A stretch of DNA of 47,714 nucleotides from a virus (lineage: Duplodnaviria; Heunggongvirae; Uroviricota; Caudoviricetes), in IMG/VR virus record IMGVR_UViG_2541047681_000007. One strand, 5' to 3'. A model generated the notes under the pieces. That model searched no databases, was not told the origin of the DNA, and was given only the letters and a program-made list of their open reading frames with translations. The position numbers and the translations under genes were made by a program. Below, piece after piece: positions 3,927 through 35,228 of the stretch (within the stretch, counting starts at the first letter, position 1; each line of letters begins with the position of its first letter).

Positions 3927-4511
3927 TTACACGGTGTCTGGTTCTTCTGGCCACTCAATATCCGGTGCAGTTGTTGTATTAACACGGTTCAGCAACACCC
4001 GATATTTTTTCCAGGCTTCCAGCAATGAGGTTTCTTCCTCCGTTGCGATCTCCAGATCTACAGCATCCTGAAGTGGCGCTATATGCTCACTGGCTACCTG
4101 CATCAGGCTGTTTTTTGTTTCTTCCGCCTCCCGGATCCGGAACAGTTTTTCTGCTTCCGTATCCTTCACCCAGGCTGTGCCGTTCCACTTCTGATATTCC
4201 CCTTCCGGCGATAACCAGGTGACATTTTCCGGTAACGAGCCAAGTTCAGAAATAAATAACGCGTCGCCGGAAGCCACGTCATAGACGGTTTTTCCCCGAT
4301 GATCTTCAACGAGATGCCACGATGCCTCATCACTGTTGAAAACAGCCACAAAGCCAGCCGGAATATCTGGCGGTGCAATATCGGTACTGTTTGCTGGCAG
4401 ACCTGTATGAGGCGGAATATATGCGTCACCTTCACCAATAAATTCATTAGTTCCGGCCAGCAGATTATAAATTTTTATGGTCCGTGGTTGTTCACTCATT
4501 CTGAATGCCAT
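3927..4511 (-). CDS. tfa: Tail fiber assembly protein Tfa
   Basis: 194 aa, [51 protein letters not shown] typical lambdoid Tfa; start overlaps stf stop. Confidence 0.85.
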
Positions 4512-32898: not shown

Positions 32899-33816
32899 AT
32901 GGTATCATATTTTATTAAGCCATATCTAAACGACCATATTTATCATTTTAAAGATACTTTTGCGTACGCGTTAGTAAAATCGTATAATTCTTCATTTGTT
33001 ATTTACAAATGGAGAATTAATGTGGCAGCAAACGTTGAATTTGATTTCCCAAATTACTTTGAAGTGGATGAAGAAAAGTTAAGAAGAATTCATTCCATTA
33101 TTAAAAAGAGGCTTCCAGAAAAAAACAAAGAAACTATAGAATTCATTATCAAAAAATCCGATAATTTTATCTACCACACTAAAAACATTATTGATATAAT
33201 TAATGAACCAAATGACTCCACTTCAAAAATAAACAGCATAAAAATTAATTATAATTCAGAAAATATGGATGTTGCTGTATTGCTAAGTAATAAAACAGGT
33301 GCGTCAATAAATGTATCAGGAGAAAATCGTGATGATGTTTTTCTTCTGTCATCCGAGTTGAAGGAATATATATCAAAAGAAGTCGCAAATATAACAAAAA
33401 TGAAATGGATGCAAGCAAGAACTATTTCATCAATAATTATGCTGCTTCTTGTTGGATATATAACGTATATATTTTCGGATATAAAAATAATAGATGCAAA
33501 TGCCCTCAAAGTAGCACTTGAAAGTACAAACCCCAATGACAAGCTTAACTTTTTGATAAGCAAGGGAAATAAAGACATTAAAACAGCAACAACTATAGTA
33601 CCTATGTTTATATTATTACTAGCAGTAATTGCTGGTCAAATCATACCTTTTGAAAAAATCATGAACTATATCTACCCAAGAAACATATTCCTTTTCGGTA
33701 AAGAAATATCTCTCATTGAACGCAAGAAGAGAAATAGAAGTAATATATTTTGGGTGATTATTGTTGGTAGCATCATATCACTTTTAGTTGCATTTATCAG
33801 CACAAGATACATGTAA
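32899..33816 (+). CDS. Hypothetical membrane protein, AT-rich moron (three predicted C-terminal TM helices)
   Basis: 305 aa ORF of low GC content on the strand opposite to late transcription; TM segments ISSIIMLLLVGYITYIF, TIVPMFILLLAVIAGQIIPF, IFWVIIVGSIISLLVAFIS; followed by hairpin terminator. Confidence 0.55.
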   Translation: MVSYFIKPYLNDHIYHFKDTFAYALVKSYNSSFVIYKWRINVAANVEFDFPNYFEVDEEKLRRIHSIIKKRLPEKNKETIEFIIKKSDNFIYHTKNIIDIINEPNDSTSKINSIKINYNSENMDVAVLLSNKTGASINVSGENRDDVFLLSSELKEYISKEVANITKMKWMQARTISSIIMLLLVGYITYIFSDIKIIDANALKVALESTNPNDKLNFLISKGNKDIKTATTIVPMFILLLAVIAGQIIPFEKIMNYIYPRNIFLFGKEISLIERKKRNRSNIFWVIIVGSIISLLVAFISTRYM

Positions 33817-33826
33817 TAATTAATAA

Positions 33827-33860
33827 ACAAGCCTATGCATATGCAGTAGGCTTGTTTTTC
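33827..33860. terminator. Bidirectional hairpin terminator between convergent Q and moron genes
   Basis: ACAAGCCTA-loop-TAGGCTTGT followed by TTTTT on plus strand and U/A-rich tract on minus strand. Confidence 0.45.
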
Positions 33861-33867
33861 TATCTAA

Positions 33868-34230
33868 TTAATGATAAAGCATAGATATACAGCCATCAAT
33901 AAATCCGATGGCTGTTTGTAGATCTTTTCTAATTTTCCCATCAGAACATCTTCTTTTTTTTGCGATAGTTCGTAAGGATAAACCAATAACAAAATGAGCA
34001 ATAACCAACTCATACTCTTCTGGCTTGTACTTTCTTAATCTAGCTACACACCCATCGATCATGAGCCCCTCATCATCATCACACTGAATGCGGGACTTTT
34101 TACCATGAGGCAAAAGCCCCTTGAAGCCAGCTGCGATCGGTTGCCAGTCCACACCACTGTTATCTGCTGCGGCCCATGCTCCCCAGCGCTCCAAAACTTC
34201 ACACATGTCACGCATCAACTTTCTCCACAA
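33868..34230 (-). CDS. Q: Antitermination protein Q (small Q family)
   Basis: 120 aa, position upstream of lysis cassette, LPHG motif and Cys cluster as in the short Q antiterminator family. Confidence 0.65.
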   Translation of the reverse strand: MWRKLMRDMCEVLERWGAWAAADNSGVDWQPIAAGFKGLLPHGKKSRIQCDDDEGLMIDGCVARLRKYKPEEYELVIAHFVIGLSLRTIAKKRRCSDGKIRKDLQTAIGFIDGCISMLYH

Positions 34231-34232
34231 AA

Positions 34233-35228
34233 TCAGGCCAGCACGCCAATTGCCAGCGCACGATCGATAAAACGAAACATCAGCTCCAGCTGGGAGCCAT
34301 ACATCTCTTCAAATGCCACGGTATCCGCATGCAGCTCGTCGTGATGCTTTCTGCACAAAGGCAACACAAAGAGGTCATGCGCTTTTGTACCCATTCCACC
34401 CTGACCGTGGCCTATCAGGTGGTGGGGATCATCAGCTGGCTTTCCACAACATGCACACGGCTGTGTCTTAACCCAGCGCGTGTACTTTTCATTAACCCAG
34501 CGGCGACGTTTTGGGCGTAACATAAAAGACTCCGGCGACTCCGGATCCACTTTCAGCGCCAGCACCTTTTTCGCCTTATCCTGGATGATGCTGGTGGCAG
34601 GAACCGAAGGCACAAGGTCACTTTCCCGGGTGACAGACGGCACAACAGGCTTCGGTAATCTCAGTGCCTTACGGGCTGCACTTTCCGGTAAGGCATCTGC
34701 CAGATCATTACGAATCAGCCACCAGCACAGTTCCGGCATTGTCACAACGTGACTATCATCAAAACCGAGATCCCGACGCACAACAGACAACACCCAGCGG
34801 GCACAGTTATCCGTTGCCATTGATTCCAGCCGTTCCGTGAACTGATCGCGCAGCTGGTTATCGCAGTGCCAGCACAGACGGATTGCACCCGGAGCGTGTC
34901 GCATTGTGGTCATGTTCTCGCTGTGCCAGTCGGAATGAGGCCACTGGCAGCCTTTTTCACGAAGTAACCAGCTTTCAAGACATTCCACGCCACCAGCACG
35001 ACGGATCACTGCATCATTGCGGAACACGGCCCGAACGGCAGGATCATCCGCCAGCGGTTGTGATGCCGCCGGAACGGCACCACTGGCGAAAGATGAATAA
35101 CGTTCCGGCTCAGGCTCCAGCAGGACACGCCCCTGCATAAACAGGGGCATCAGCTCTGAACCTGGTCTGAACAATACGATCCCCATACGCGGGGCAATTT
35201 CAGGGGTCAGTAGTGCTCTCACGGTCAC
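34233..35228 (-). CDS. DUF968-like (YdfU-like) phage protein with C-terminal Cys/His HNH-like motif
   Basis: CACCGKPADDPHHLIGHGQGG...LCRKHHDELH motif; nin-region position. Confidence 0.5.
   Translation of the reverse strand: MTVRALLTPEIAPRMGIVLFRPGSELMPLFMQGRVLLEPEPERYSSFASGAVPAASQPLADDPAVRAVFRNDAVIRRAGGVECLESWLLREKGCQWPHSDWHSENMTTMRHAPGAIRLCWHCDNQLRDQFTERLESMATDNCARWVLSVVRRDLGFDDSHVVTMPELCWWLIRNDLADALPESAARKALRLPKPVVPSVTRESDLVPSVPATSIIQDKAKKVLALKVDPESPESFMLRPKRRRWVNEKYTRWVKTQPCACCGKPADDPHHLIGHGQGGMGTKAHDLFVLPLCRKHHDELHADTVAFEEMYGSQLELMFRFIDRALAIGVLA

Follow-up and report, generated by a model that had tools for sequence, protein, structure and literature searches.

The P2/P4 defense hotspots hold, at a fixed position in the phage backbone, interchangeable AT-rich cargo that is mostly uncharacterized and includes defense systems (Rousset et al. 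2022, PMC9122126; Vassallo et al. 2022, 10.1101/2022.05.12.491691). The slot described here shares these properties. It differs in that it sits in a lambdoid phage with an antiterminator Q of the QuuD/Q21 type, between Q and the putative late promoter PR', and in that the predicted promoter of its cargo shares a -35 element with a conserved late-promoter block. Our subject is gene X, the cargo of this slot in a Caudoviricetes sequence of 47,714 nucleotides (IMG/VR record IMGVR_UViG_2541047681_000007), the full length of which we call the window. We read X as exchangeable cargo of lambdoid prophages, most likely a single-protein anti-phage defense made in the lysogen and probably of the abortive-infection type; in this reading as a whole our confidence and our doubt are about evenly balanced. 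That X is a defense gene of any kind seems likely to us.

Among lambdoid phages, the nmpC/lc porin morons of DLP12 and PA-2 (qsr' region) are arranged as X is: they point toward a QuuD-type Q and away from the lysis genes, and a PR'-like block and a terminator lie on the late side. Their cargo is an outer-membrane porin, whereas X is predicted to reside in the inner membrane with one domain in the cytoplasm and is unrelated to them in sequence. Cargo of the stx type is also found between Q and the lysis genes of lambdoid phages. There, stx follows PR' and tR' on the late strand and depends on Q for its expression (PMC6266700). X, in contrast, lies on the opposite strand, upstream of the putative PR', and has a sigma-70-type promoter of its own. 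A first-pass annotation of this DNA had put X in the Q-to-S position that carries stx in related phages. This is probably not correct; with PR' where we infer it to be, X is not late-operon cargo of the stx type.

Two further comparisons concern the protein. KwaA of the Kiwa system is a defense protein of the inner membrane with several transmembrane (TM) helices, and sister prophages carry it in the slot that X occupies here. It requires KwaB as a partner; X, by comparison, stands alone in its module, with no second gene, and has a cytoplasmic domain of its own. P22 SieA is an inner-membrane protein of the prophage that is made in the lysogen and acts on incoming phages (PMC10883804). Together with lambda RexB and T4 Imm it resembles X in being located in the inner membrane, expressed in the lysogen and directed against incoming phages (for X, by our proposal). 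X differs from these three by its large conserved cytoplasmic domain and its phylum-spanning distribution, and no sequence or profile similarity to them was detected.

The case for defense rests chiefly on the recognized defense systems that the slot holds in sister prophages, which is an association and not a proof. A Q gene 80–90% identical in DNA sequence to that of the window occurs in about 365 of 5,426 complete E. coli genomes, from which 14 loci were sampled. The first-pass annotation had suggested comparing the Q-S interval among related prophages; in this comparison all 14 loci carry interchangeable AT-rich cargo, defense systems included, just past the Q stop codon (0.9–3.8 kb, 29–40% G+C content [GC], in a backbone of about 50%). 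The cargo is almost always encoded on the strand opposite Q. Counting this window, the 15 loci hold 11 different cargos, of which X is the smallest and the only one with a single gene. The cargos found in the sister loci are:

Kiwa, in two loci (KwaA 1.9e-83, KwaB 6e-150)
OLD-family ATP-dependent nuclease (HEC-04, 2.9e-34) with a C5 methyltransferase
ThsB-like TIR protein (2e-12) with a caspase-family protein (1.6e-19)
DUF262 protein (NsnA 5.6e-46 / PD-T4-2_A) with a HEPN-like nuclease
metallophosphoesterase of 1,047 aa, PDC-S60 (1.2e-94)
operon with an MBL-fold protein
STAS-like (DUF4325) operon
four further operons without annotation, one of them found in two loci

The enterobacterial branch of the X family is therefore associated with defense genes, and the earlier guess that X is a superinfection-exclusion or abortive-infection determinant gains strong guilt-by-location support from this cargo. 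The slot just past Q looks like a sharply bounded defense hotspot of lambdoid prophages with a QuuD/Q21-type Q. In the literature covered by our limited search we found no description of such a Q-proximal hotspot or of the shared cargo promoter discussed below. The unit that is exchanged can be delimited in the window as follows:

32975 to 33889, no strand assigned: exchangeable module of about 0.9 kb and 29% GC, with the PR' block at one end and the final ~7 codons of Q at the other

Its left edge is where the likeness between loci with different cargo stops, and its right edge is where the 90%-identical Q genes begin to align (query position 30–37).

Six of the operons in the slot have a weak PADLOC match or none, and we regard them as candidate new defense systems. 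They are the STAS-like/DUF4325 operon (L041 2081–3947), the MBL-fold operon (L043 2067–4467) and operons encoding hyp87 and hyp246 (L044 3470–4470), hyp308 and hyp182 (L046 3011–4472), hyp273 and hyp161 (L054 2628–3958), and a nucleoid-associated-like protein and hyp408 (L056 1526–3897).

X itself keeps to this slot. In every enterobacterial locus that was fetched the order is Q, X, first late gene, and orthologs in this position share between 47 and 73% identity:

P0003, E. coli/Citrobacter prophage, 72% identity
P0005, Kosakonia prophage, 65% identity
P0014, Pectobacterium prophage, 47% identity
P0010 and P0017, two metagenome contigs, same slot

In these loci X is convergent with a PF06530 Q of 114–116 aa that lies 40–50 nt away. 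It is divergent from a first late-strand gene that varies (a methylase, an Endonuclease_NS gene, a holin or HicB). X occurs in only 3 of the 5,426 complete E. coli genomes, and the adjoining 163 nt occur in more than 1,000 genomes. The first-pass annotation had concluded from composition and orientation that X was acquired horizontally. This holds in the sense that X is part of an exchanged unit, rare in E. coli and replaced by other cargo in sister prophages. It does not hold in the sense of a one-off recent insertion, because orthologs of 47–73% identity occupy the same slot in several enterobacterial genera.

The late-gene side of the slot is marked by a conserved block, which we compared between window positions 32945–32974 and the loci L041–L056. 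The 15-mer TTGCGTACGCGTTAG (window 32960–74) is found just upstream of every cargo with 0–2 mismatches, independent of the type of cargo. When loci with different cargo are aligned, the similarity that extends from the late-gene side ends exactly at the TTGCGTACGCGTTAG block. On the late strand the backbone reads CTAACGCGTACGCAAAAAGTATTG-TATCGT-GTTAAGAGTGGTTACTTCGCCACACAGCTTAAA-CCCGCC....GCGGG-TTTTG. The features proposed for the late strand of the window are:

32945 to 32974, minus strand: putative PR' with Q-binding element (QBE); -35 CTAACG (32974–69), 18-nt spacer (32951–68), -10 TAAAAT (32950–45)
32843 to 32859, minus strand: weak terminator-like hairpin, GGCTA..TAGCC followed by GTTTCTT, the sole candidate tR' that a terminator scan found in the window

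The candidate QBE ACGCGTACGC, with the direct repeat wACGCr occurring twice, lies inside the PR' spacer. Across loci the -35-like hexamer is CTAACG, TTAACG or TTTACG, the putative -10 fits TAnnnT in all 19 loci, and a conserved -10-like element, TGnTAA, is located 3' of the -10. The transcription start site (TSS) of PR' is predicted near position 32938 on the minus strand. Downstream of the putative PR' most loci have a CCCGC..GCGGG-TTTT terminator. The hairpin at 32843..32859 is present in the minimum-free-energy fold of its region, which overall is not unusually stable, and the feature is uncertain.

For the Q protein of phage 21 the QBE is a direct repeat in the spacer between the -35 and -10 of PR', and the initial transcribed region contains a pause element that resembles a -10 (PMC6606751). 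Because the block is conserved, its parts stand in the canonical order and the arrangement is analogous to that of 21Q, we consider TTGCGTACGCGTTAG to belong to a putative late promoter PR' with a QBE on the late strand. The Q21 cassette (PDB 6P18, 6JNX) has a distant relative of our Q and the same series of -35, repeat-containing spacer, -10, -10-like element and terminator. The repeats differ: wACGCr twice in the block described here, TGAGCA in phage 21. Also, PR' directly follows Q in the textbook cassette, whereas in the slot described here 0.9–3.8 kb of cargo appears to lie between the two. If the block is PR', then Q and PR' flank the cargo, which is not part of the late transcript. In the quuD locus of DLP12, whose Q is more divergent, the arrangement is the same, with a PR'-like block and a terminator before essD, and the repeat is a variant, TTTACGTACGTAAAA, as would be expected of a Q-specific site. 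A different late promoter, TTGATG-17-TATCAT at the 3' end of Q (33899–33871), was also considered; we rejected it, since it is not conserved in other X loci.

On the other strand the same block appears to contribute half of a promoter to the cargo. For X this promoter is:

32960 to 32988, plus strand: X promoter; -35 TTGCGT (32960–65, within the conserved block), 17-nt spacer, -10 TATAAT (32983–88)

Transcription of X is predicted to start near position 32995 on the plus strand. The promoter elements are invariant in four X loci whose proteins share only 65–73% identity, in agreement with the first-pass annotation, which had given the gene an upstream region of its own. The arrangement is not limited to X. 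In 19 of 19 loci, representing 12 cargo types, TTGCGT is followed by TAnnnT after 17 nt (18 nt in two loci), and cargo DNA shows TAnnnT at one of these two offsets with an empirical chance of 0.047 per locus. The -10 hexamers vary with the cargo (TATAAT, TATACT, TAATAT, TATTAT, TATGTT, TATTTT, TAGTAT, TAAACT, TACAAT, TAGAAT and TATGCT). Hence each cargo appears to take its -35 from the TTGCGT of the backbone and to supply its own -10.

The two promoters are divergent and overlap: the cargo -35 (32960–65) lies inside the PR' spacer (32951–68), and the PR' -35 (32969–74) lies inside the spacer of the cargo promoter. This suggests that expression of the cargo is coupled, possibly inversely, to the activity of PR' or Q. 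One could speculate that polymerase at either promoter should exclude polymerase at the other, and that Q bound to ACGCGTACGC would cover the cargo -35. When a resident prophage turns lytic, polymerase on PR' or Q on the QBE could then silence X, or whatever other defense cargo the prophage carries.

Turning to the gene itself, an open reading frame (ORF) of 305 aa does exist on the plus strand at 32899..33816, as the first-pass annotation had it, but the protein is shorter, with 264 aa starting at 33022 according to RefSeq and the starts of its homologs. The features are:

32899 to 33021, plus strand: noncoding 5' leader and promoter of X, 123 nt, corresponding to codons 1–41 of the 305-aa ORF
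33011 to 33014, plus strand: Shine-Dalgarno sequence GGAG, 7 nt before the GTG at 33022
33022 to 33816, plus strand: gene X, a RefSeq coding sequence of 795 bp (WP_021512739.1), 264 aa, GTG start
33825 to 33857, no strand assigned: terminator hairpin between the convergent genes X and Q, with a U-run on the plus strand and an A/T-rich tail on the minus strand

All 28 homologs from the first search round are about 264 aa long and begin with M/V-AANVE at codon 33022. Their alignments span 85–87% of the 305-aa ORF, and none reaches into 32899..33021. Seven X orthologs with 43–86% amino acid identity, all of 29–33% GC, have pairwise ratios of nonsynonymous to synonymous substitution rates (dN/dS) of 0.14–0.27. 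By these ratios X is a functional protein-coding gene under purifying selection.

The hairpin lies in the 51 nt between the stop codons of X and Q. It has a folding free energy of -17.9 kcal/mol (z -4.7), which none of 200 shuffled sequences equaled in stability, and is followed by UUUUU. It is kept at the same place in six of six aligned X loci, with differing stem sequences. With a predicted promoter, a Shine-Dalgarno sequence, a coding sequence and a terminator, X qualifies, judged by its sequence features, as an autonomous accessory unit of the moron type. Very low GC (27–31% across the ORF, about 50% in both flanks), orientation opposite to the late and lysis genes, which are all on the minus strand, and the hairpin terminator had all been noted in the first-pass annotation and stand.

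Conservation of the ORF is not without exceptions. The gene is kept under purifying selection in orthologs, yet in an E. coli isolate set (cluster members P0185 and P0186) X is annotated in two pieces of 183 and 78 aa. X is disrupted in these isolates, and its loss is evidently tolerated. A second observation concerns NZ_CP148393.1 (L057), a circular record of 44,611 bp from a human E. coli isolate that is labeled a plasmid. It contains the same prophage region with an X of 99.6% identity. The record looks like an excised phage genome, which suggests that the prophage is inducible.

The protein has three TM segments by Kyte-Doolittle hydropathy (residues 134–152, 192–210 and 242–260 in the 264-aa numbering), as had been predicted for its C-terminal part. 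An AlphaFold2 model, built from an alignment of 29 sequences, represents all three as helices (mean predicted local distance difference test score [pLDDT] 80, predicted template-modeling score [pTM] 0.66). In this model residues 1–121 form an N-terminal alpha/beta sandwich, with a long helix at its end that is followed by TM1. After TM1 come two short helices and a long helix that continues into TM2. The loop between TM2 and TM3, FLFGKE (with invariant F223, G226 and K227), forms a short strand beside the N-terminal domain and is followed by TM3. The N-terminal domain might be described as TBP/AdoMetDC-like. We expect this domain of about 125 aa to be cytoplasmic because a signal peptide is absent; the K/R-rich loop between TM2 and TM3 is consistent with this. 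Conservation in the family is strongest in the cytoplasmic domain and the juxtamembrane loop. In the N-terminal domain E17, R30, D47, E62, N64, R103, D104, S111 and Y116 are invariant or nearly so, and elsewhere the same is true of K174 and N176 (in a helix that is periplasmic by the predicted topology), the FLFGKE loop and W244.

X belongs to a large family. When 1.84 billion cluster representatives (50% identity clusters) were searched exhaustively with its profile, 1,469 proteins passed E≤1e-3 and 236 passed E≤1e-30; almost all are 255–290 aa long and match from end to end. Every database name given to these proteins is 'hypothetical protein', and we found no relevant mention of their accessions in the literature searched. 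Named sources are E. coli, Citrobacter, Kosakonia, Cedecea, Pectobacterium, a metagenome-assembled genome of Chloroflexi, Methanosarcinales and an uncultured archaeon, and the family is also present in many soil and groundwater metagenomes. Among isolates it is rare. Most metagenome loci are too short for their context to be read. Among 185,579 species-representative genomes, a search with one peptide pattern found at least two loci of the family, which is a lower bound; the alignment of diverse members gave no usable peptide pattern.

The family appears to have no characterized relative by sequence or fold. Searches of Pfam, PADLOC, PHROGs and NCBIfam with X alone returned only noise (PADLOC v2 none at all for X), and 67 diverse relatives had no match in Pfam or PADLOC. 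The family profile found nothing under E 0.8 among PDB sequences, and a fold search of BFVD with X found nothing at E<1e-3. The first-pass annotation had named homology to a housekeeping or phage structural function as something that would speak against its interpretation. Across Pfam, PHROGs, PADLOC, NCBIfam and PDB no such family was matched.

One distant member is found in NZ_CP137488.1 (L058), a circular P. aeruginosa record of 10.2 kb that is labeled a plasmid and carries an X-family gene at 855–1652. Its gene set (zonular occludens toxin family, attachment protein, major capsid protein and integrase) is that of a Pf-type filamentous phage. The homolog is a true family member (hhalign probability 100%, E 2.8e-59), lies directly 3' of an Arc-family DNA-binding gene and adjoins a ParE/Phd toxin-antitoxin pair. 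Two unrelated kinds of temperate phage, Pf-type and lambdoid, therefore carry the family as accessory cargo. A scan of viral contigs with the Pseudomonas homolog gave no match. Another distant member is located in an island bounded by an integrase and a transposase.

How could X act? If X is an abortive-infection protein, it would reside in the inner membrane with its conserved N-terminal domain in the cytoplasm, where this domain would sense a cue of infection, which might be a small ligand or a protein of the phage. From there the signal would travel through the invariant juxtamembrane FLFGKE loop, which in the model is packed on the N-terminal domain. The three TM helices would then oligomerize and compromise the integrity or the potential of the membrane, and the infecting phage would be stopped at the expense of the cell. 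Provided that X is a defense gene at all, we see this type of action as possible, at or a little under even confidence.

It is also conceivable that X is a superinfection-exclusion protein that blocks genome entry from the inner membrane, as P22 SieA or T4 Imm do, in which case the host cell survives. X is predicted to be an inner-membrane protein that is expressed independently of the late operon from its own promoter, and its conserved periplasmic helix (K174, N176) could touch the ejection apparatus. In addition, exclusion functions are common at the position after the Arc-family DNA-binding gene of Pf-type phages, where the Pseudomonas family member is found. However, the best-conserved part of X is the cytoplasmic domain of about 125 aa and not the periplasmic face, the family occurs in Gram-negatives, Chloroflexi and archaea, a spread not expected of a protein that recognizes ejection proteins, and homology to known exclusion proteins was detected neither in Pfam nor in PHROGs. 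We prefer abortive infection over entry exclusion because conservation peaks in the cytoplasmic domain and the juxtamembrane loop, and because the family crosses phyla with very different envelopes. Exclusion is unlikely in our view, and if one takes defense for granted, entry exclusion is still an unlikely way for X to achieve it.

Several points weigh against a defensive role of X, or at least against the abortive-infection mechanism. X matches no model of a known or candidate defense or exclusion protein. A relationship to KwaA, which we considered in view of the shared slot, was rejected (hhalign probability 0.3%). An nmpC-like porin occupies the equivalent slot next to quuD (L050 2877–3974, E. 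coli N61, DLP12-type prophage), and five cargo types in the slot are without an assigned function. Distant family members in Chloroflexi, an uncultured archaeon and soil metagenomes are solitary genes among housekeeping genes, with no obvious defense island. Oligomerization and pore formation by X are wholly conjectural, and the TSSs, PR' and the QBE are predicted features. Finally, a gene of 30% GC may be silenced by H-NS in E. coli.

Some of these points would also fit if X were lysogenic-conversion or fitness cargo outside phage defense, such as a membrane stress, transport or signaling protein, and in this respect comparable to the DLP12 porin. The porin beside quuD, the solitary chromosomal genes and the lack of any match to defense-database models all point in this direction. 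On the other hand, most of the identifiable cargo of the slot is defense, and the family is patchy and linked to mobile elements (a prophage, a Pf phage and an integrase island), which is typical of conflict genes and not of physiological ones. We consider fitness cargo rather unlikely, and a lysogen-made defense remains our preferred reading of X.

The neighbors of X are all encoded on the minus strand:

34233 to 35228, minus strand: DUF968 gene (ORF/domain listing and RefSeq)
33868 to 34230, minus strand: antiterminator Q of the QuuD/Q21 type, PF06530 at 2.4e-46 (with the RefSeq start 33868–34215, 115 aa)
31645 to 32697, minus strand: N6/N4 DNA methyltransferase (Pfam PF01555), the first late-strand gene, split into 32536–32697 and 31645–32490
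31362 to 31640, minus strand: holin
30865 to 31362, minus strand: lysozyme
30401 to 30880, minus strand: Rz

The match of Q to the Q21 structures 6P18/6JNX is a distant one (E 1.6e-3). With holin, endolysin and Rz genes nearby and three TM helices in the protein, one might suppose that X belongs to the lytic program of the phage itself, as an antiholin or a regulator of lysis timing. This is most improbable. X lies on the opposite strand with its own predicted promoter, and in sister phages, whose lysis genes are the same, its place is taken by unrelated defense operons. X is also absent from all 50,697 sequenced phage records (tblastn), matches no holin or lysis family in Pfam or PHROGs, and has family members in contexts that are not phage.

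If X is indeed a defense gene, then it represents a compact single-gene membrane immunity family of 264 aa with a broad distribution, which would lend itself readily to testing and to structural work. Independent of what X does, the interval from Q to PR' looks like a rich defense hotspot, with at least five cargo operons without annotation that are ready candidates for discovery. The general kind of element, an AT-rich moron in a prophage hotspot, is already familiar; the protein family, in contrast, has no characterized counterpart, and our limited literature search turned up no account of the Q-to-PR' hotspot. The overlapping promoters suggest a simple way in which a prophage may switch off the defense cargo it carries during its lytic cycle, which bears on the question of how prophages avoid targeting themselves. 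One can go further and suppose that X founds a widespread family of single-protein membrane immunity genes, in an undescribed lambdoid hotspot in which a switch driven by Q and PR' provides self-immunity for every cargo. Were the switch real, Q and the firing of PR' would turn the defense gene off, and the phage would not set off its own abortive-infection gene. This combined proposal strikes us as a long shot.

Two minor observations remain. The late-strand methyltransferase has an in-frame TAA in place of E54 at codon 54 (32536–38), just past the DPPY motif. It is 98.5% identical at the nucleotide level to the intact gene of mEp460, without any insertion or deletion, and RefSeq calls only the downstream part of 291 aa; the gene is probably an inactive pseudogene. 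Near one end of the window and unrelated to X, positions 3970–4168 on the minus strand of the window are a full-length match to the Rfam small RNA IS009 (225 bits, E 2.8e-55).

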